From positions 1-64,000 of the IMG/VR virus record IMGVR_UViG_3300042465_005830: 64,000 bases of DNA; one strand, given 5' to 3'. A model generated the notes under the pieces. It did not search any database. It was given only the letters and a program-made list of their open reading frames with translations, and was not told the origin of the DNA. Below are positions 1,229-51,864 of this stretch, one piece after another; position 1 is the first letter of the stretch, and each line of letters starts with the position of its first letter. The DNA comes from an uncultured virus (IMG/VR IMGVR_UViG_3300042465_005830) (taxonomy: Duplodnaviria > Heunggongvirae > Uroviricota > Caudoviricetes). The position numbers and the translations under genes were made by a program.

Positions 1229-4200
1229 ATGCCAAGTTGGAAAAAAGTCATAATTAGCGGCTCAGATGCTGCTTTAAACTCTCTTACCGTTTCAAACGGA
1301 ATAACAAGTTCTTTATTCGGAACTGCTTCATGGGCAGTTTCTGCTTCAAATGCTGTAACAGCTTCATATGCAAATTTTGCATTAACAGCATCTAATTCTC
1401 AAAATGCTCAAGACATTTTAATATATGTTAAAAATGTAACTGGAGCTCAAATCAACAAAGGAAAAGTAGTAAGAATATCAGGAGCAACAGGTGATAATGC
1501 TTTAATATCAACAGCCTCATATGAAAGTGATCCAGTTTCAGCTAACACTTTAGGTATTACCAATCAAGATATCCCTAATGATAGCTTTGGATATGTAATA
1601 ACTGAAGGTACCTTAATAGGAATAAACACAAATGCATTCTCAGCAGGACAATTACTTTATTTAGGAGCAGCTGGATCTATAATAGGAACAGCACCCGTAG
1701 CACCATTACATGCTGTAAGATTAGGGCAAGTACTAAGAGTACAGACTAATAATGGTTCAATGTATGTCCGTATTGATAATGGATATGAATTAGGAGAATT
1801 ACATGATGTAGTAGACACTACAACAACTTCATCATATGGAGATTTATTAGTAAAAAGTGGAAGTGTTTGGATTAATTCTAGACAATTAACCGGATCTTAC
1901 GGGTTAACAGGATCTTTAAATGCAACTTCTTTTGTAGGACCATTAACAGGAAACGCAACAACAGCTACAACAGCATCACATGCTTTAACAGCTTCACTGG
2001 CTCCAAACTATCTTCCTCTAACAGGAGGAACAATAACCGGATCACTTACTATAACAAATAATATAACAGTATTAGGATCTGCATCTATTCAATATATTTC
2101 AGAATCAACACTTAATATTGGTACAAATTTAATTACAGTAAACACCTTCAATCCTTCTACAAGATTTGGAGGATTAGCAGTAATTGATTCAGGATCATCA
2201 CCAACAGTATCTGGTTCATTCCTATATGATTCACTTCAAGATGAATTTATATTTGTACATAAAGGAACATCAGCCGGTGCAATAACATCATCTGTTTTCC
2301 TATTAGGACCAGAAACATATAATAATTTAGGTAATGAAACATACCTAACAGCAAACAGAATACCAAAAGGAACAGGTATAGAACATCTAAATGATAGTAA
2401 TATATCAGATAATGGATCAGTTGTATCAATAAACAGTACTACACAAGTAACAGGATCTTTAATAGTAACAGCAGGAATAACAGGTTCTTTACAAGGAACA
2501 GCTTCATACGCTTTATTTGCACAAACACCAACAGTAGCAGGGGCAACAGGAGCAACTGGACCTCAAGGTGCTACAGGAGTAGTAGGTGTATCAGGAGCTA
2601 CAGGATTGACTGGACCAACAGGACTTACAGGTCCAACTGGAGTCATCGGAGTATCTGGGGCAACAGGATTAACAGGTCCAACAGGAGTAAGTGGAGCTAC
2701 GGGAGTAGTCGGAGTAAGTGGAGCAACAGGTCTTACAGGTGCAACAGGAGCTACTCTAGCAGTAGTAAACAATACAGATAATTACATACTTACAGCAACA
2801 GGCGGTTCAACAGTAAATGGTGAAGCAAATTTAACATTTAATGGAAGTTCTTTAAATGTAAACGGAAATACAATTATAACAGGTTCTGCAGTAATAGGAT
2901 CAAGTTCTTTAGGACCAAGTGAAAATACTTTAACTTTAGGAGCTAGAGATACAGCAGGAGAAGGAGGTCAATTAGGATTTAATGCTTCAGGAGGTACTTA
3001 TACATCTGCGTCAATGTTTGATCTTTATCAAAACAGACTTAGAATACTAAGAGGTACAAACGCTGGAAGTGATGCAGAAGTAGCTTGGTGGAGTATGCAT
3101 AGTAAGCAAATGGCAATGCCGGCTTACAACAGCACAGCAGCATTTCCAGGAACAGCAGCAGCATATCTAGCAACAGATTCAAGTGGTAATGTAATTACAG
3201 TTTCTGGAATAGCAGGGGTAACCGGTGCAACCGGACCTACAGGTCCACAAGGAGCTACAGGACTAACAGGACCAACCGGTATTCAAGGAGCAACCGGTCC
3301 AATTGGAGTATCAGGAGCAACAGGACTTACAGGTCCAACCGGAGTATCAGGTGCAACAGGGGTAATTGGAGTAAGCGGAGCTACAGGATTGACTGGACCA
3401 ACAGGAGCAGTAGGTGTTAGCGGAGCTACAGGAGTAGTTGGTGTATCAGGAGCAACAGGTTTAACAGGACCGACTGGTATTCAAGGAGCAACAGGTCCAA
3501 TAGGAGTAACAGGTGCAACCGGAGTAATTGGTGTTAGTGGAGCAACAGGATTAACAGGTCCAACAGGGGTTACTGGAGCCACAGGACCAGGAGTAAGTGG
3601 TACAACAAATTATGTTGCTAAATTTACAAGTGGTACAGCCATTGGAAACTCTTTAATATTTGACAACGGTACAAATGTTGGTATTGGAACGACAAGTCCT
3701 ATTTCAAAACTTAATGTTTTAGGTAGTGGAACAACTTCAATAAGTATATCAAATTCAAATGCTGGAACAACAGCAAATCCAGAATTAACACAATTAAATT
3801 TTTTAGGATTTTCACAAGAAAATAGAGCAAGAATAGAAGCAACGGATGTTGCTAGTAGTGCAAACGGAAGCGAATTACGTTTTTATAATGCCAATACAAG
3901 TAATGTTTTAACCGAAAGAATGCGTATTGACTCTTCAGGTAACGTAGGTATTGGAACAACAACACCGTTTAGGGCTTTAGACATAAATGGATCATTAAGA
4001 ATACAGACACCAACAATTGACTTAGGTAATACAACTGACAATCAGATATGGGTTTCTTCAAATAATATAAATTTCAAAACAAACGGATCAGAAAAAGCAA
4101 TAATTACCTCAGCAGGTAACGTAGGTATTGGAACAACAGGCCCTTCCACGGCACTTCATATAGCTAAAGCAGCAGCCACAGCACCTATTGTAAGATTACA

Positions 4201-9928: not shown

Positions 9929-11197
9929 ATGGCAGTAGCACAAGGATACGGAAAAACAGTCACATCAGGATCGGTGTTTGCTTACGATGTAGCAGATTTT
10001 AGAAATAGTTATATTGGACAGCCAGGTACTAACATAACAACAGGAGTTAATAGGAACTATAACGGATACAGCCTTACTACATACTCACCTGGTGTATTTT
10101 TTGAAACTAACGGATATGCTGAAACTGTAAATATACCAGCATTAGGAACAGTTAATGTGCAGAGCATTGAAATTAATAACTCAGCTTCAGGAAATGCATG
10201 CTGCCCTAATTTATTTAACTATACAGGAGGTTTCAACAGTCCCATATGGACTCCCGGCCAAACATATACTTATCAAATTATATTCAAAACACGTTCAGGA
10301 TATACACATCCTAATTTTATGTACCACTATCAATATACAAGTGGGGAATCATATATAACAGAGTATGGATTATTGGATACAAATAAAATGGAATCCCTAG
10401 GAGATGGATGGTTTCATGCTTGGAATACATTTACAGTAGGAGGAACTGCTGTTAAAGGATATACAGGATTATGGTACTATAACTATAATGTAGCAGATAA
10501 AGTATCAATAGCTGCTATAGCAATAACTCCTGGAAGTACAATAAGACCTCCTAAGCAAATAATACCATCAGGGACTACCCGTTCAGTAACACAAGGACTT
10601 TTACCATTGGTAGGAAATTCAACAATAGATCTAACAAACGTATCTTTTGATTCAAATGCACAAATGACTTTCGATGGTACGAATGATTATATTGCAGCAG
10701 GTAATCCTACAGCTTATAGAATGGGTACTAGTAATTTTACCCTTGAATGTGTAATGAAGCAGTCAAAAACTTCTGGACATTGCTTACTAGAGTCTAGGGG
10801 AGATAGTTTAGCAGGGTATCTATGGGTACATAACTACTACAGTACAGGACAGGGATGTCTTTTCTTAAACTACGGCGGTAACCAGTACTTGCATTTTCAA
10901 GACGGAGGATTTGTTGCAACAACAACAACACAGTACTACCACATGGCAATTGTAGTAAATAGGGTAAGTAATATTATTTCATTTTATGTAAATGGAAATA
11001 AGGTAGGAAACGATGTATCGATTCACAGTAATTCAATTAGCCCTACAGGAGGAGATAGGTACTGGGTAGGAGCAGATTTAGGAGGAAGTCCATGGCAGGG
11101 AGAGATACCTGTATTTAAACACTACAACAGAACACTTTCAGCATCTGAGTTAAGACAGAATTATTTACATTATAAAACAAGATTCAACTTAAGTTAA
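9929..11197 (+). CDS. LamG/concanavalin-A-like lectin domain virion protein (paralogue of the previous gene)
   Basis: FDGTNDY ... WQGEIPVFKHYNRTLSASEL; shares the linker and YKTRFNLS end with 8779..9927. Confidence 0.75.
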   Translation: MAVAQGYGKTVTSGSVFAYDVADFRNSYIGQPGTNITTGVNRNYNGYSLTTYSPGVFFETNGYAETVNIPALGTVNVQSIEINNSASGNACCPNLFNYTGGFNSPIWTPGQTYTYQIIFKTRSGYTHPNFMYHYQYTSGESYITEYGLLDTNKMESLGDGWFHAWNTFTVGGTAVKGYTGLWYYNYNVADKVSIAAIAITPGSTIRPPKQIIPSGTTRSVTQGLLPLVGNSTIDLTNVSFDSNAQMTFDGTNDYIAAGNPTAYRMGTSNFTLECVMKQSKTSGHCLLESRGDSLAGYLWVHNYYSTGQGCLFLNYGGNQYLHFQDGGFVATTTTQYYHMAIVVNRVSNIISFYVNGNKVGNDVSIHSNSISPTGGDRYWVGADLGGSPWQGEIPVFKHYNRTLSASELRQNYLHYKTRFNLS

Positions 11198-11209
11198 TAT
11201 TTATTATAT

Positions 11210-11551
11210 ATGAGTACACAATTTCCAAATAGAAGATGGTTAATAATACCAACCACAGCAACAGGATCGATTGATTTCAATCAAGTATTAGAATCATCAC
11301 CAGAGAGTTTAAGACTATCGGTAGATGGTACTAAGACTTTTATTAAGTATGAAATTATAGAAGTACCGGTTACATGTCAAACTGAATTTATAAATGCAGA
11401 AACAGGAGAACCTGAAGTATGTACTACAGAAGCAGGGGTATACGGAAGACCAAATATTTACCAAGAAGGTGATACAGAGTATACTCATGAAGAAATTCTT
11501 CATATATTATCAACTGAAGAGTGGACTAAACCAATGGAAGAATTAAGATAA
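11210..11551 (+). CDS. hypothetical phage protein
   Basis: ORF preceded by a TATTTAT motif. Confidence 0.6.
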   Translation: MSTQFPNRRWLIIPTTATGSIDFNQVLESSPESLRLSVDGTKTFIKYEIIEVPVTCQTEFINAETGEPEVCTTEAGVYGRPNIYQEGDTEYTHEEILHILSTEEWTKPMEELR

Positions 11552-13508: not shown

Positions 13509-14171
13509 ATGATACAGAAAATACAAGCATTTGCAGTAGTAAATAGGGGAACTGCTACAGAAGTAAAAGTAGAGGTACAGAGTAGATTTACTACAAGAGA
13601 CAGAGCAGTAATTTACTACGACCTAAGAGATCCAAACGGAACAACTCCGGCATTTGATTCAAGAACAAATCAATTCGTAACACTCCCTTATGCAATCTTG
13701 TCACGTAACAAAATAGTAGTAACAGGAGAAGACCGTGCATCAGCAATATCAGATGCAAACCTTGCATCAAATATAGTATTTAGAGAGAGAACAGATGTAG
13801 TAAAAGATACAAATACATATAAATATTTTGCAGTTAGAAATAAAATGACTCAAAGAGGACGTAACGGAGGTCGACAAACCGTAGATAAAGGTGCATATAG
13901 GCTGTACGAAAAATCATCAGCAGCAAAAACAGGATTAAATAACTACACTCTTTTAAGTGAATCTCAAGGAGAACCTGTTGATAGAATCCCTATTTACGAC
14001 TTCAAAGGTCGTCTTATTGGATATGAAGATAAGTACTTATCAAGTAATTATGGAGCAGGTATTATAGATATACAGGTAACTATAAGCAACACAGGTGAAA
14101 AAACATATACAGTAGCTTCTAATAGTAGAGGAGATGAATTTTATATTAATTTAATACAACCATATTTATAA
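13509..14171 (+). CDS. hypothetical protein
   Basis: ORF track, 220 aa. Confidence 0.6.
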   Translation: MIQKIQAFAVVNRGTATEVKVEVQSRFTTRDRAVIYYDLRDPNGTTPAFDSRTNQFVTLPYAILSRNKIVVTGEDRASAISDANLASNIVFRERTDVVKDTNTYKYFAVRNKMTQRGRNGGRQTVDKGAYRLYEKSSAAKTGLNNYTLLSESQGEPVDRIPIYDFKGRLIGYEDKYLSSNYGAGIIDIQVTISNTGEKTYTVASNSRGDEFYINLIQPYL

Positions 14172-14180
14172 TAACAAAAC

Positions 14181-14425
14181 GTCCAGATTAAATCGGGTGA
14201 ATTGCTGGAAAGTCCTTAGAGCCTCAAGTACCAAAGCGTAACAATCTTGAGGATTGGAAAATCAGCAGCCAAGCTTAGGATACATCCTAGGAAGGTTCAG
14301 AGACTACTGGAGAGGTAAAGTCCTCTTAATAACCAGCTAGAGCGCCCGACACTTGTAAGAGTGATGATATAGTCCGAACTTTATGGAAACATAAAGATAA
14401 CAAATTGGGAGTTTCGGCTCTGGAT
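14181..14425 (+). ncRNA. group I intron ribozyme (intergenic, apparently permuted)
   Basis: Canonical core elements are present: P (GAATTGCTGGAAA, 14199), Q (AATCAGCAGCCAAG, 14260), R (GAAGGTTCAGAGACTA, 14291) and S (GATATAGTCC, 14366). Helices: P3 TCGGG/CCCGA, P7 GACTA/TAGTC, P8 CACTT/GAGTG, P9 CTTTATG-gaaa-CATAAAG, and P9.0 CGA/TTG placing omega-G at 14408. Confidence 0.88.
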
Positions 14426-14449
14426 GACCAAATTAAAAACAAATAGATT

Positions 14450-14788
14450 ATGACAAATTACACTTGGACTGTAGGTCCATTCGATTGCATCTTAAACGAA
14501 GATGACATGCAAAAAGTAGTAACAACAGTACACTGGAGATATAGAGGTACTGATGAAAATGGAACATCTGCAGAGACTTACGGAGCACAATCTGTAGGAG
14601 CTCCTGACCCGGAAAACTTTACTCCTTTCTTAGAAATTTCTCAAGAACAAGCAGAAGGGTGGTTAGAAGCAGTAATGGATATGGATGCTATAAAAGCAAA
14701 CATTGATTCTCAAATCAACTTAATAAACAATCCAGTAACAGCAACTTTAGCTGCTCCTTGGAATACACCAGTAACAGGTAGTTTGTAA
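14450..14788 (+). CDS. conserved phage hypothetical protein
   Basis: VVTTVHWRY ... FTPFLEISQEQAEGWL; a type commonly seen near fibre genes. Confidence 0.65.
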   Translation: MTNYTWTVGPFDCILNEDDMQKVVTTVHWRYRGTDENGTSAETYGAQSVGAPDPENFTPFLEISQEQAEGWLEAVMDMDAIKANIDSQINLINNPVTATLAAPWNTPVTGSL

Positions 14789-47836: not shown

Positions 47837-47920
47837 GGAAGGCATCCGGCTGGATCAGGAGCCACTCTTGAAAAGTGGTAGCAGGTAATACTGTTGTGGG
47901 TTCGAGTCCCACGTCTTCCT
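47837..47920 (+). tRNA. tRNA-Ser(TGA)
   Basis: CCACT-CTTGAAA-AGTGG, long variable arm, TTCGA T-loop. Confidence 0.85.
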
Positions 47921-47926
47921 CAATAT

Positions 47927-47998
47927 TGGCTTATAGTGTAACGGTTAGCACAAAACACTTTGACTGTTTTAGTCTAGGTTCGAATCCTAGTAAGCCAA
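47927..47998 (+). tRNA. tRNA-Gln(TTG)
   Basis: AAACA-CTTTGAC-TGTTT cloverleaf. Confidence 0.9.
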
Positions 47999-48213
47999 CA
48001 AATAATTGTAAGTAATGAAAGCCTATCCCAACACTTGATCAGTAAGTAGGACGGTTAGTAAAGAAAGCATTATCAGTAAGTAGTGGAGAAATCCATATGG
48101 AGAAAACGATGCAAGACATGAGTACAGGGAATCAGCCCGATGGCTTTGCTTACGGAAATTACAGTAGTTTTGAGATGGGCGAATTCTACTTTAAAAAAAT
48201 AATCCCTTCACCA

Positions 48214-48289
48214 CTGGTAGTAGAGGAGTCCGGTTTATCTCGCTGGCCTTGGACGCTAGAGCACGCAGGTTCGAATCCTGCCTACCAGA
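48214..48289 (+). tRNA. tRNA-Pro(TGG)
   Basis: CTGGC-CTTGGAC-GCTAG. Confidence 0.88.
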
Positions 48290-48296
48290 CGAGAAG

Positions 48297-48495
48297 AGAC
48301 TGTTACTAATTCATAGAAGACCACGCGAGTAAGTCCTCGAAGCGTAGAATTAGATTTGCCTTCGAAGCTCATGTGGACGGGCACCGGGCTTTTAACTCGG
48401 GGGTAGCTGGTTCGAGGCCAGCCGGGGGTACAAAAGAAGACTGTTACTAATTCATAGAAGGGCTTTTAGACCGAAGCGTAGAATTAGATTTGCCT
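48297..48495 (+). repeat. two copies of a bipartite spacer element preceding tRNA-Lys and tRNA-Val
   Basis: AGACTGTTACTAATTCATAGAAG at 48297 and 48438; CGAAGCGTAGAATTAGATTTGCCT at 48338 and 48472. Confidence 0.85.
48358..48430 (+). tRNA. tRNA-Lys(TTT)
   Basis: CCGGG-CTTTTAA-CTCGG. Confidence 0.8.
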
Positions 48496-48562
48496 CGTTG
48501 GCGTAATGGTAGCGTATTTGTTTTACATGCAAAGGGCGATAGTTCGATTCTATCACGAGGTA
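48492..48562 (+). tRNA. tRNA-Val(TAC)
   Basis: TTTGT-TTTACAT-GCAAA. Confidence 0.85.
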
Positions 48563-48661
48563 CAAAATTCTGGGTAGCAAGTAAAATACCGGCAAGTATT
48601 TTCAAGACTATATGGAGTCTATTATGAGTTAGTAATTTGCCGATGAAAGCTTGTTATAGTT

Positions 48662-48733
48662 TCGTTCTTGGTAGATTGGTGACTACGCTGCCCGTGGAGG
48701 GTGGAGAAGCAGGTTCGATTCCTGTAGAATGAT
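48662..48733 (+). tRNA. degenerate tRNA (His/Pro-like, anticodon loop lacks U33)
   Basis: Acceptor TCGTTCT/AGAATGA and T-arm intact; loop CGTGGAG. Confidence 0.5.
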
Positions 48734-48739
48734 CAAATT

Positions 48740-48822
48740 GGGATGCTTCAGTCACTGGTGTGATAAGCGGTCTGTAAAATCGTTGCTGTAAGAAGCGTGT
48801 GGTTCGATTCCACAGTATCCCA
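48740..48822 (+). tRNA. tRNA-Tyr(GTA)
   Basis: GCGGT-CTGTAAA-ATCGT, long variable arm. Confidence 0.8.
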
Positions 48823-48827
48823 CAATT

Positions 48828-48900
48828 GGACCTTTTGTATAGCTGGTGCGTACGCTAGTCTGAAGAACTAGAGGAACAGGTTCGATTCCTGTAGGGTCCA
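48828..48900 (+). tRNA. tRNA-Phe(GAA)
   Basis: CTAGT-CTGAAGA-ACTAG. Confidence 0.88.
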
Positions 48901-48905
48901 CAACC

Positions 48906-48977
48906 GGGTTTGTCGTATAAAGGTTATTACGGATGACTGTTAATCATCTTATGGAGGTTCGATTCCTCCCAGGCCCG
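48906..48977 (+). tRNA. tRNA-Asn(GTT)
   Basis: GATGA-CTGTTAA-TCATC. Confidence 0.88.
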
Positions 48978-48986
48978 CAATTAAAT

Positions 48987-49130
48987 GCTCGTATAACAGG
49001 TAGTGTGGTAGCTCCCCAACCTGAAGTGGGATAACGTGACGGTCAATCGTAAAAGCTCAAGGTACGTAACAAGTAGCAGTTGGTTGGAGTAAGTGACTTA
49101 TCGAGGTTGGTTCGATTCCAGCTATGAGCA
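48987..49130 (+). ncRNA. 144-nt tRNA-like RNA with large non-canonical interior
   Basis: Acceptor GCTCGTA/TATGAGC+A; T-arm GTTGG-TTCGATT-CCAGC. Confidence 0.55.
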
Positions 49131-49137
49131 CAAAAAT

Positions 49138-49211
49138 AGGTAATTAGCTCAATTGGTTAGAGCACTCGCCTGATACGTGAGAGGTTATAGGTTCGATTCC
49201 TATATTACCTA
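49138..49211 (+). tRNA. tRNA-Ile(GAT)
   Basis: CTCGC-CTGATAC-GTGAG. Confidence 0.9.
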
Positions 49212-49216
49212 CAAAG

Positions 49217-49299
49217 GGAAAGTAAATCAACTAGGAGTTGAGACCGCTTGCTAAGCGTATCGTGCCTTCGGGCATGGGGTTCGATACCTCTGCTTTCCT
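49217..49299 (+). tRNA. tRNA-Ser(GCT)
   Basis: TTGCTAA loop; long variable arm TGCC-TTCG-GGCA. Confidence 0.75.
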
Positions 49300-49505
49300 C
49301 AAAAAAACCTCCTCACCGTCCTCACAACGCATCTAAGGAATGCAGGAGAAGGAAGTACGAACGGGGCCCCGTGGTAAGACACTTTAAAATCAGATAGTAC
49401 AGCGATAGGGTAAGAGGTTCCCTATCAACTACCGACTTGATCTAGGATCGAGAATATCTCATAAGTATTCTCAGACAAGAGCGTAACTTGTAGTCGGTAC
49501 AATAT

Positions 49506-49579
49506 GGTGATTGTAGCTGAATTGGTAAAGCGTCTGATTGTGGTTCAGGAGATTGTGGGTTCGAGTCCCATCTTTCACA
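49506..49579 (+). tRNA. tRNA-His(GTG)
   Basis: TCTGA-TTGTGGT-TCAGG; encoded G-1; two U-U pairs in the acceptor stem. Confidence 0.8.
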
Positions 49580-49586
49580 CAAACAT

Positions 49587-49666
49587 ATCCCTGTGGTGAA
49601 AATGGTAAACACACCAGGCTTAAAACTTGGCGCTCAGGCTTGCTGGTTCGACTCCAGTCAGGGGTA
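49587..49666 (+). tRNA. tRNA-Leu(TAA)
   Basis: CCAGG-CTTAAAA-CTTGG. Confidence 0.85.
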
Positions 49667-49742
49667 CAAAGAGAGAGATGTAGGACTAATTGCCTACCCT
49701 GTTGCATAGCAGAAAGTAGCTTAAATAAAGCCTCTCTTATTT

Positions 49743-49814
49743 GGTCTTATAGTTTAATTGGAAAAACTTATCGCTACGAACGATAGAACGTAGGTTCGAC
49801 TCCTACTAAGACCT
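49743..49814 (+). tRNA. tRNA-Arg(ACG)
   Basis: TATCG-CTACGAA-CGATA. Confidence 0.88.
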
Positions 49815-49819
49815 CAACT

Positions 49820-49891
49820 GCCCGTATAGTTTAATCGGAAGAACTAAACGCTTCTAACGTTTCAGTCCTGGTTCAAGTCCAGGTATGGGTT
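49820..49891 (+). tRNA. tRNA-Arg(TCT)
   Basis: AAACG-CTTCTAA-CGTTT. Confidence 0.88.
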
Positions 49892-49963
49892 CAAAAAAAT
49901 CGTCCCTCATAAGGGTTAAGTAGATGAGGCTAATCTAGGTAGGTTAAGCGATACCCTACAAAT

Positions 49964-50034
49964 GCGTTCCACAGACAAGGTGTCGGTCAGGTCTCCAAAA
50001 CCTCGACGGCTGGGTTCGATTCCTAGGGTTCGCG
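49964..50034 (+). tRNA. tRNA-Trp(CCA), non-canonical D arm
   Basis: AGGT-CTCCAAA-ACCT; T-arm CTGGG-TTCGATT-CCTAG. Confidence 0.7.
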
Positions 50035-50066
50035 CAAATATATTGTTTCATTAAAAAAAGTAAATC

Positions 50067-50573
50067 ATGAGTAAGTATCAAAAAGCACTAGTAGTAGATG
50101 CCAGCTTTATCGCAAGATCAGTTATAAGTACAGAAAGAGCTTTCGTGATTTCTTATAAAGGTAATGCTGAAGTAATAGCTGAACATCCAGAAACATTTAA
50201 TCTGTATAACCCAGAATTAACAATTTATAAACCTTCTATTATTAGAGTATTTACATATGTAAAACATAATATTCAAAAAGTAGCTCTAACAAGAGAGAAT
50301 ATTTATAGAAGAGATAATTACGAATGTGTTTACTGCGGATGTTCAAATCAAAGAACACTAACACTTGACCATGTTATACCTCAATCAAAAGGAGGAAAAG
50401 ATGCTTGGGATAATTTAGTAACAGCCTGCAGACCATGTAATCATGAGAAAGCAGATTTAACATTAGAGGAATACGGTAAGGAAATTCCAGAACCAAAAAG
50501 ACCTCACTATTTAATGTTAATGAGAACTATGACACACATACCAAAGGAATGGGAAACTTTTTTATTTTTTTAG
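50067..50573 (+). CDS. HNH endonuclease (McrA-like) within the tRNA array
   Basis: RDNYECVYCG ... TLDHVIPQSKGG..WDNLVTACRPCNHEK. Confidence 0.92.
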   Translation: MSKYQKALVVDASFIARSVISTERAFVISYKGNAEVIAEHPETFNLYNPELTIYKPSIIRVFTYVKHNIQKVALTRENIYRRDNYECVYCGCSNQRTLTLDHVIPQSKGGKDAWDNLVTACRPCNHEKADLTLEEYGKEIPEPKRPHYLMLMRTMTHIPKEWETFLFF

Positions 50574-50700
50574 TAAAAAAAGTTGCTAGAAAGAAATAAA
50601 GTTCATATCTTTAAGTATAAGAAAGAAGATAAAACATCTACTACGTAACGCACGATCGACGACACGTACTGTCTGGCAGGTCAGGCTAGATGTTTAAATT

Positions 50701-50771
50701 GGTCGGTTGGCCGAATGGTTAGGCGCAGGATTGCAAACTCTGTAACGTTGGTTCGATTCCAACACCGACCT
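50701..50771 (+). tRNA. tRNA-Cys(GCA)
   Basis: TTGCAAA loop; U73 discriminator. Confidence 0.85.
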
Positions 50772-50866
50772 CATTGAAGGTTCGACCCTCTACCAAATGT
50801 GTTACACCCACAGATGGACAACGAGAGGGAGCTACCGATTGATAAGTGGCCGCACATGCGGCAAAT

Positions 50867-50940
50867 GCCCGAGTGGTGGAATTGGCAGACACGCTAGACT
50901 TAGGATCTAGATATTGAGGGTTCGAGTCCCTCCTTGGGTA
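50867..50940 (+). tRNA. tRNA-Leu(TAG) with short variable loop
   Basis: CTAGA-CTTAGGA-TCTAG; Leu-type D-loop but only a 5-nt variable region. Confidence 0.8.
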
Positions 50941-50945
50941 CAAAA

Positions 50946-51016
50946 TTAGAGTTAGCTTATAAAGGTTAAAGCAGCAGGGGCTAACCTGCAGAACGGATTC
51001 ATAGCCCGGCTCTAAT
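50946..51016 (+). pseudogene. degenerate tRNA-like element
   Basis: Acceptor TTAGAGT/GCTCTAA; GCAGG-GGCTAA-CCTGC 6-nt loop; eroded T arm. Confidence 0.45.
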
Positions 51017-51135
51017 TAAAATATAAACTATTATGCGTAAAAAGTTAGATAGATGTGCAGATAAGATTGGGAAGCCGAGTTTACGGTGAAAGGCTGCCAC
51101 TGATGACTCCCAATAGCCTCTAATAGTTTAAATTT

Positions 51136-51209
51136 GCTTCTGACGCACAAATGGTGGTGCACTGGATTTGTAACCCAGAATAGAGTCGGTTCGATCCCGT
51201 CCAGAAGCT
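51136..51209 (+). tRNA. tRNA-Thr(TGT)
   Basis: CTGG..TTTGTAA..CCAG. Confidence 0.8.
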
Positions 51210-51214
51210 CAACT

Positions 51215-51286
51215 GCGGCTATCGTATAATGGTCATTACTTTAGACTTCCAATCTAAAGATGAGAGTTCGATTCTCTCTAGCCGCT
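51215..51286 (+). tRNA. tRNA-Gly(TCC)
   Basis: TTAGA-CTTCCAA-TCTAA; U73. Confidence 0.9.
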
Positions 51287-51292
51287 CAAATT

Positions 51293-51364
51293 GCTGCGTT
51301 AGTGAAGGGGTAAACACGTATCACTTTCTATGATAAGGCACGGGTTCGAATCCCGTACGCAGTA
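51293..51364 (+). tRNA. tRNA-Glu(TTC)
   Basis: TATCA-CTTTCTA-TGATA. Confidence 0.85.
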
Positions 51365-51439
51365 CAGAGCTCTTTATTCGTATTAGGAGGAATAGCTTAA
51401 TCAGCTTCTAGATTTGACGACTCGGAAAGACGAGTAACT

Positions 51440-51511
51440 GGGGCTATAGTGAAATTGGCATCACGATAGATTTGCATTCTGTTATTCCGGGTTCGAATCC
51501 CGGTAGCTCCA
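51440..51511 (+). tRNA. tRNA-Ala(TGC)
   Basis: GGGGCTA/TAGCTCC with G3-U70; TTTGCAT loop. Confidence 0.9.
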
Positions 51512-51565
51512 CTATACAGCTGTATAACAGCTGGTGGTTGACAGCTCGGAACAGACGGGCATTTT

Positions 51566-51638
51566 GGTCTGGAGGTGTTATTGGTAACACGTCGCACTGT
51601 CACTGCGAAGATTGCGGGTTCGATCCCCGTGCAGACCG
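51566..51638 (+). tRNA. tRNA-Asp(GTC)
   Basis: TCGCA-CTGTCAC-TGCGA; G73. Confidence 0.85.
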
Positions 51639-51647
51639 CTTATAAAT

Positions 51648-51717
51648 TGCGTTAAGGTGTAAAGGTTGCATCTAGGTCTCATAAGCCTGGGGGGTGGTTC
51701 GAGTCCACGCTACGCTA
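51648..51717 (+). tRNA. tRNA-Met(CAT), possibly initiator-like
   Basis: TAGGT-CTCATAA-GCCTG; mismatched acceptor end. Confidence 0.65.
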
Positions 51718-51723
51718 CAAATT

Positions 51724-51797
51724 GTCCTTTTAGCTCAGCCGGTTAGAGCAGCTCGCTCATAACGAGAAGGTCACAGGTTCGAATCCTGTATAGGACA
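51724..51797 (+). tRNA. tRNA-Met/Ile2(CAT)
   Basis: CTCG-CTCATAA-CGAG; canonical D and T arms. Confidence 0.85.
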
Positions 51798-51864
51798 CTA
51801 AAGTTTATCCAATATGAGAGCAATTCCCTCATCTCCAATGTAGTACTTGACTAGTTCAAGTATT

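Follow-up and report, generated by a model that had tools for sequence, protein, structure and literature searches.

A complete group I ribozyme core was found in a spacer between two intact open reading frames (ORFs) of an uncultured phage, where the guide segment at the 5' end of the core pairs with a target lying downstream of omega-G, the 3' splice-site-type guanosine. This observation, an intergenic core with a downstream-paired 5' guide, is real and far beyond chance, and its reading as a permuted P1 is strongly supported by comparative evidence. What the layout points to is a ribozyme of an undescribed kind that occurs naturally and processes itself, possibly making circles. In the explanation favoured here, to which we attach about even confidence, the element is a group I ribozyme that stands free, with a P1 opened at its loop and permuted, it belongs to a family that resides in phage spacers, and it would release a short mini-exon, most simply as a circle; the mechanism and the formation of a circle are what we infer from the arrangement of the sequence.

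Natural group I ribozymes are known almost exclusively as introns, which must splice to spare their host gene. In the family described here, the full apparatus and both reaction sites are under selection at the level of covariation and nothing is interrupted, which implies that the RNA reaction or its products would be what selection sees.

The group I core and its genomic setting

The window, which is the whole 64,000-nucleotide stretch of DNA that was analysed, is part of a 76-kb contig of an uncultured phage that carries 22 tRNA genes and a tail module comprising a tail fibre with a Peptidase_S74 chaperone, a DUF7936 gene and a sheath. Its nearest cultured relative is Flavobacterium phage vB_FspM_immuto (immuto), and comparison of the flanking genes with cultured phages gave matches limited to the core of the ribozyme and a portion of the DUF7936 gene. 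The DUF7936 gene is annotated as 'lysozyme' in immuto.

The first-pass annotation of this DNA had described a complete group I core, and a covariance-model search bears this out: Rfam RF00028 matches window positions 14132-14396 on the + strand with 96.9 bits (gathering score 50; E 9e-24), the sole hit in the 76-kb record, while the homologues score 76.9-93.9 bits, also above the curated threshold. The core is intact and under structural selection, because P3 and P9 covary in the family (Table 1). The J8/7 and P4 junction sequences, which lie outside the requirements of the search pattern, are invariant in 23 aligned copies, and over P7-P3' the core is 77-81% identical to the psbA introns of S-PM2 and S-RSM88.

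Table 1. Positions of the ribozyme elements and associated features in the window.
Feature	Positions	Strand	Basis or remark
Catalytic core	14188..14396	+	Rfam alignment; P3 and P9 covary in the family
P3	14193-99 with 14343-49	+	Rfam alignment
P4-P6, P7.1/7.2	inside core 14188..14396	+	Rfam alignment
P7	about 14300-06 with about 14370-75	+	Rfam alignment
P8	14350-63	+	Rfam alignment
P9	14379-96	+	Rfam alignment
Internal guide sequence, 5' strand of permuted P1, CGTCCAGA	14180..14187	+	wobble G is G14181
Target strand of permuted P1, TCTGGATG	14419..14426	+	predicted cleavage U14425/G14426; family covariation
Probable omega-G (3' splice-site-type G)	14407	+	TG 11-12 nt after P9; L164/L161; contig X2
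Clamp helix, 5' strand TTGG	14405..14408	+	contains omega-G and first mini-exon base
Clamp helix, 3' strand CCAA	14428..14431	+	pairs with 14405-08
Putative 18-nt mini-exon GGAGUUUCGGCUCUGGAU	14408..14425	+	inner UUCG hairpin 14409-14420
TATTTATA motif, promoter-like	14163..14170	+	10 nt 5' of guide; over-represented in the window
tRNA-Thr(UGU), candidate trans site after U32	51136..51210	+	ARAGORN; sequence

The ribozyme had been placed between two intact ORFs without interrupting a gene, and this is what was found. The upstream ORF (13509-14171, 220 aa) ends in TAA TAA, and the downstream ORF (14450-14788), which has an in-frame TAG at 14444-46 ahead of its start, encodes a full-length DUF7936 protein in which profile positions 1-99 of 103 are matched from residue 1. 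All three frames after the G run at 14407-09 meet a stop by 14453. Both neighbouring ORFs are complete, and the element does not interrupt a gene whose exons would be joined, as a conventional group I intron does. No homing endonuclease was detected by Pfam in five neighbouring proteins.

Two relatives whose DUF7936 gene is 89-92% identical to that of the window (L003 and L004) have no ribozyme at this site, and the spacer in its place in L004 is 19 nt long; given these insertion-free close relatives, the element has therefore been inserted into a spacer between genes. In L005, a third contig, a near-identical copy (L005b) stands at the same place as in the window, together with a second copy (L005a), 80% alike, in another spacer that is empty in the window (11197-11210). 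Each of the two L005 guides suits its own target better than that of the other copy. This 8-kb contig thus carries two permuted ribozymes, at 157-470 and 3688-3990, in different spacers of the tail-fibre module. In immuto, the copy lies directly 3' of the stop codon of gene 225.

Upstream of the guide, the TATTTATA(ATAA) motif is a candidate phage promoter, a function suggested by its distribution: the window has 10 copies of ATATTTATA where 3.1 would be expected, 9 of them on the + (coding) strand, and copies of TATTTATA stand 25-35 nt ahead of the sheath gene and of other late-looking gene starts. In most copies of permuted subtype A (see below), the TATTTATA motif lies 4-12 nt ahead of the guide, and a TATTTAT motif stands ahead of it in most members of the family. 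Copies of TATTTATA(ATAA) include those at window positions 1152, 14163, 15226, 17399, 17988, 19009, 21861, 47439 and 47509, and mostly lie 25-35 nt upstream of genes. Immuto gene 227 (L001 3252-4019), a 255-aa ORF with no Pfam match that is absent from the window, has its own TATTTATA motif upstream and sits between the ribozyme terminator and the DUF7936 gene.

The permuted P1 helix and its covariation

In the window, C14180-A14187 pairs with T14419-G14426 to give 8 bp, including the G14181.U14425 wobble. The complementarity of the 5' segment to the strand behind omega-G and the wobble of the guide G with U14425 had both been pointed out in the first-pass annotation, and both hold, in the fold of the window as well as in the covariation of the family. 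The permuted-P1 helix is recovered by RNAfold in the MFE and centroid structures (z = -3.6; 0/200 shuffles as good). Counting both strands, the window contains the 8-mer TCTGGATG three times where 1.36 copies would be expected, and the probability of a chance copy on the + strand within 60 nt of P9 is roughly 6e-4 by an arithmetic estimate. The downstream target is the sole + strand copy of CTGGAT between 12000 and 15500, and no upstream partner for the guide therefore exists there; the statement that no 5' exon could form P1 is confirmed for 2 kb upstream on the + strand, where CTGGAT is absent. P1 is not formed with the end of an upstream 5' exon, as in a conventional intron; its partner is downstream.

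Homologues were collected with one core pattern, which yielded 38 viral loci and at least 122 metagenome stretches (80 with fetched flanks). The matches listed numbered 165, earlier loci and duplicates included, from which 26 without a recognisable P3 or P7 motif were dropped, and 98 distinct flank combinations were kept among them and classed as permuted subtype A (25, including L085), permuted subtype B (10), tRNA-linked conventional introns (16) and others, mostly conventional (47). The permuted layout is therefore present in at least 35 copies from phage and metagenome contigs, which represent 28 distinct guide/target pairs. Among these 28, the G.U wobble is kept in 27, pair -1 in 26 and pair +4 in 23. 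Guides matched to their own targets form 2.36 of three variable pairs as compared with 1.53 for swapped guides, a value reached in 0/10,000 permutations, and the covariation between guide and downstream site that had been proposed as a check on homologues is thus observed.

A MAFFT alignment was made of 23 of the 35 permuted copies, from which subtype B, L067 and L085 were omitted and in which L015 is misaligned. In these 23 copies, the wobble is G.U throughout (23/23), pair -1 is UA in 14, CG in 3, UG in 3, GC in 2 and other in 1, and pair +4 is UA in 13, AU in 7, GC in 2 and CG in 1 and is never unpaired; pair +5 is unpaired in 14 copies and pair +6 in 7. For P1', P3 and P9 together, 94.5% of cells are paired, a share that falls to 26-45% if the partner is shifted by 1-3 columns. 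The covariation score is reached in 0/500 shuffles, although shuffle statistics on this family are inflated, since the sequences are related and their independence is overstated. Four Watson-Crick pair types at one position, combined with an invariant wobble, are the comparative signature of a reactive P1.

The sole exception among the 28 pairs is L085, whose core is 99% like that of the window and in which A-U replaces G.U; this may be a recently disabled copy. In the clamp helix described below, L085 has G.U where the window has G-C.

The position of the guide relative to the core is constant. Every subtype-A copy has its wobble G 14 nt 5' of GGGTG, the P3 motif, as is true of G14181 in the window, and the conventional, P2-less L006 family has its guide wobble G at the identical position, with a partner that scores 9 and is 5 nt upstream. 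For the permuted copies, the target is found 48-54 nt after P7' (100 nt in L067), and a comparable upstream partner occurs in no permuted copy listed, the best upstream matches being short (2-5) and scattered. A single origin of the layout was considered and is not favoured by the core tree, in which the permuted copies do not form one clade and at least three changes are needed, in a tree of short columns and unsettled bootstrap.

A third layout was noticed in two viral loci (L019 and L035) and two metagenome stretches (L114 and L134) with related cores. In these, the 5' segment forms a perfect helix of 9-16 bp with a partner about 130 nt beyond P9, which has no G.U at the guide position and, beyond an additional 3' domain, closes the RNA as a whole.

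The mini-exon, the clamp helix and the proposed reaction

After P9, members of the family carry (C/T)TAA(C/T)A followed by 2-4 nt and then TG, a context similar to that of conventional tRNA introns in the collection, whose 3' exon is directly preceded by ACA(C)ATG. Omega-G had been assigned to 14408. It is more likely G14407, because L161 and L164 have the TAACA...ATTG of the window with a single G and because an RNA contig, X2, diverges from the window after 14407. With omega-G at G14407, the mini-exon would therefore measure 18 nt (14408-14425) instead of the 17 nt given in the earlier annotation. A P10 pairing of AAAC with GTTT, which had also been suggested, is not maintained: T14414 is replaced by A in the near-identical L005b, and no equivalent was seen in the members read by eye.

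The mini-exon is 15-22 nt long in 24 distinct copies and usually consists of a hairpin of 3-4 bp and NGGAU, with a sequence that is not conserved. The UUCG hairpin noted earlier is present in the window, its loop is changed to UACG in L005b, and across the family the inner stem covaries (GAG/CTC, GTG/CAC, TTG/CAA). The order found is that of a permuted intron-exon arrangement, namely 3' splice site, exon and 5' splice site, with the exon end paired to the guide.

The two sites are connected by a short clamp helix, which runs through an omega-G:C pair and reaches 4 bp or more in 22 of the 24 distinct copies, its 3' strand lying 0-7 nt after the wobble U. The omega-G+1 pair covaries (GC in 5, AT in 5, TA in 10, CG in 1 and TG in 2), and clamps of at least 5 bp are formed by 83% of matched as compared with 30% of swapped pairs, a separation seen only in the test anchored on the omega-G:C pair. 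A first swap control barely separated matched from swapped pairs (5.42 versus 4.69 bp) because the strands are AT-rich and shared. The clamp as scored is absent in L015 and L085.

In the favoured explanation, the guide at the extreme 5' end would pair in cis with the target 18 nt behind omega-G, and the RNA would fold so that the clamp helix presents the mini-exon of 15-22 nt and buries omega-G. Free guanosine or GTP would attack after the wobble U14425, a first step that would detach the downstream RNA, now with an added G. The clamp would then fall apart and omega-G14407 would enter the G site, upon which the 3'-OH of U14425 would attack after G14407 and free the 18-nt mini-exon, most simply as a circle, leaving a ribozyme with a free guide and an end at omega-G-OH. 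The clamp would hold the two sites close to each other and also hide omega-G until the first step frees the downstream strand. The transcript of the window would be cut 24 nt upstream of the DUF7936 gene, and the expected products would be upstream RNA with the ribozyme ending in G14407-OH, the mini-exon, and a G-tagged downstream RNA. A circle is consistent with the conserved length of 15-22 nt, the omega-G context and the clamp that joins the sites. Judging by general pseudoknot geometry, the short remainder of a mini-exon could bridge the outer groove of a 6-bp P1, and a circle of 18 nt is therefore sterically conceivable.

Assembled contigs from four metatranscriptome runs (X1, X2, X3 and X5) were compared with the window. 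The X1 and X5 contigs are uncut across 14407-14426 and could be precursor RNA or DNA, and no joints or end pile-ups were reported in the contigs of the four runs, a type of data in which an 18-nt circle would not appear. Weak hints in favour of the favoured explanation come from X3, whose alignment with the window ends at 14425, and from X2, which switches to other sequence right after G14407. The uncut X1 and X5 contigs speak against it, as do the lack of P10 conservation, the lost wobble of L085, the missing clamp of L015 and L085 and the failure of the permuted copies to form one clade on the core tree.

Several known ribozymes resemble the phage family in part. Conventional group I introns (RF00028; S-PM2 psbA, tRNA anticodon-loop and L006 introns) are alike in the core, the position of the wobble G and the sequence before omega-G, whereas here the P1 target lies behind omega-G, P2 is missing, no gene is interrupted and exons that could be joined are lacking. 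In the lariat-capping ribozyme GIR1, P1 has been lost and replaced by a three-way junction, and a 3-nt lariat is made by branching; the phage family, in contrast, keeps omega-G and a P1 with G.U (27 of 28 pairs), and so does not have the make-up of GIR1. What the two share, according to PMC8637638, is that GIR1 is derived from group I, acts at its own 3' side and does not splice.

Another example of a natural group I ribozyme with a permuted intron-exon layout is the giant ND5-717 intron of mushroom-coral mitochondria, for which Chi et al. (2019) describe back-splicing that starts with a permuted precursor, by way of a circular, exon-containing RNA (PMC6545197). ND5-717 has protein-coding exons, is permuted through a circular genome, is split in P8 and belongs to an animal organelle (PMC6545197), whereas the phage family has a non-coding mini-exon of 15-22 nt, lies in a linear phage spacer and has its break in the loop of P1. 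A further parallel is offered by circularly permuted group II ribozymes, which Roth et al. (2021; PMC8637638) describe as free-standing, as interrupting no ORF and as releasing small RNA circles whose role is unknown. They are of another ribozyme class that uses branching chemistry, and they are reported from bacteria and not shown in phages (PMC8637638). Engineered permuted intron-exon and Tetrahymena constructs share the order of guide, ribozyme and RNA ending in the target of the guide (PMC10415121); they are man-made and carry long payloads, as opposed to the tiny hairpin and omega-G clamp of the natural family.

No natural group I ribozyme that is L1-permuted, or free-standing and permuted, was found in the literature covered, which lay outside subscription journals. 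If the favoured explanation is true, the family would stand to group I as the circularly permuted ribozymes stand to group II, phages would thereby have their first case of this sort, and it would offer a natural, compact, P2-less scaffold arranged like the engineered constructs for RNA circularisation. A cultured member exists in Flavobacterium phage immuto, which grows on Flavobacterium sp. LMO8, and self-processing, the circle and trans targets are thus directly testable.

Alternative readings and the tRNA-Thr chimera

The ribozyme might instead process RNA by cleavage only, with a single G-dependent or hydrolytic cut after U14425 that separates RNAs or trims a terminator and makes no circle, and with omega-G and the mini-exon serving folding alone; we consider this unlikely but credible. 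Conservation of the G.U wobble and of P1' is what a first-step-only enzyme would require, P10 is absent, and precedent for a group I derivative active on its own 3' side exists in the lariat-capping ribozyme (PMC8637638). The alignment of the X3 contig (185 nt, depth 3) starts at 14244 and reaches exactly 14425, so that the mini-exon is still joined to the ribozyme, and three unread letters follow; its stop at 14425 may be an alignment clip instead of an RNA end. Against such a role stand the conserved TG context of omega-G, the covarying helix that spans the omega-G junction, the tightly bounded length of the mini-exon and the break of contig X2 at G14407. Moreover, a terminator-like hairpin lies directly 3' of the clamp in immuto, L038, L161 and L164, so that no downstream message would be left there to process; several copies look like stand-alone RNA genes made of motif, ribozyme and terminator, which argues against a role limited to processing of the downstream message.

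These stand-alone units would also suit a pro-ribozyme, in which the cis mini-exon is a removable placeholder and the mature RNA attacks RNAs complementary to its guide, here tRNA-Thr(UGU) after U32. This reading is rather improbable, and a doubtful standing is likewise given to its fuller form, in which phage pro-ribozymes would be made as their own small transcript, excise the mini-exon as a tiny circle and then attack RNAs of the cell, here at the anticodon loop of tRNA-Thr(UGU). It derives from the X2 contig (207 nt, depth 5, one run), which is 100% identical to window 14242-14407 and continues after G14407 with 41 nt that match tRNA-Thr(UGU) of the window from U33, minus CCC 51174-76. Positions 27-32 of this tRNA read CUGGAU (51162-67), a 6/6 match to the guide GUCCAG with U32 as the wobble U. 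A search of RNA for back-spliced or chimeric products had been proposed in the first-pass annotation, and in the contigs it gave the G14407/tRNA-Thr chimera of X2, whereas no back-splice joint was reported.

The X2 chimera fits two readings. In the first, omega-G of the processed ribozyme would have attacked the tRNA; an attack of this kind corresponds chemically to the step with which reverse splicing begins. In the second, a close relative would have the ribozyme as an ordinary intron in tRNA-Thr, and such a conventional intron in an unsampled relative would give an identical contig. The missing CCC is explained by neither, and under either one the break of X2 supports G14407 as the 3' boundary. 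The ribozyme-tRNA junction is absent from DNA in two IMG/VR pattern scans (0 hits in partial collections), in the record of the window (0) and in all fetched loci (fragments); a group I core was found in none of five related tRNA-Thr contigs (fragments), and all six tRNA-Thr genes in viral contigs are uninterrupted. These results speak against an intron in a relative. Attack in trans depends on one contig of depth 5 from one run whose tRNA part lacks CCC, and a phage that cuts its own tRNA makes little sense. A general rule by which guides match tRNAs was also tried and rejected, as no matching site exists among the three tRNAs of immuto or in L031 and L034; the tRNAs of L015 have only 5-nt matches, in 2 of 48 distinct tRNAs, and no tRNA was found in the L028 and L007 records. 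If attack on the tRNA were true, it would be the first natural RNA-guided, RNA-catalysed tRNA cleavage and ligation by a group I ribozyme.

That the element is an inactive relic, a decayed mobile intron in a spacer whose 5'/3' pairing closes the fold or is inherited and which has no catalysis, is distinctly improbable. An element that interrupts nothing has no need to splice, its distribution among close relatives is sporadic, and L085 has lost the wobble; against decay stand compensatory changes in P1', the clamp, the inner hairpin, P3 and P9, J8/7 and P4 without change in the 23 aligned copies, and the G.U kept in 27 of 28 pairs, although drift to G-C or A-U would be expected of a helix with no role but closure.

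A conventional intron with its 5' exon upstream, within or before the 220-aa ORF, is disfavoured and hardly credible: the Rfam alignment places P1/P2 in 14136-14175 and TTGGAT at 14017-22 could pair with GTCCAG, but this Rfam P1 is weak and AU-rich, CTGGAT does not occur in the 2 kb upstream, a splice from 14022 to the bases that follow the G run would yield a stop or a short tail, the gene downstream is complete, and homologues do not conserve the upstream match, while the downstream one covaries.

The tRNA genes of the window have further features. All 22 are clustered at 47837-51798 (ARAGORN), and tRNA-Gly at 51215-51287 is 87% identical to tRNA-Gly of T4-type coliphages (551 phage records matched). 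The tRNA-Thr(UGU) is atypical: it combines mismatches at A31.C39 and in the T-stem with a long variable region, and its Rfam score of 43.6 bits is low. The target strands of the window (GCTCTGGAT) and of L085 (GCACTGGAT) resemble positions 24-32 of this tRNA (GCACTGGAT) beyond the six pairing nucleotides. In addition, the guide 8-mer CGTCCAGA recurs at window 51198-51205, in the 3' strand of the T-stem/acceptor of the same tRNA, which could be a coincidence or a trace of common origin.
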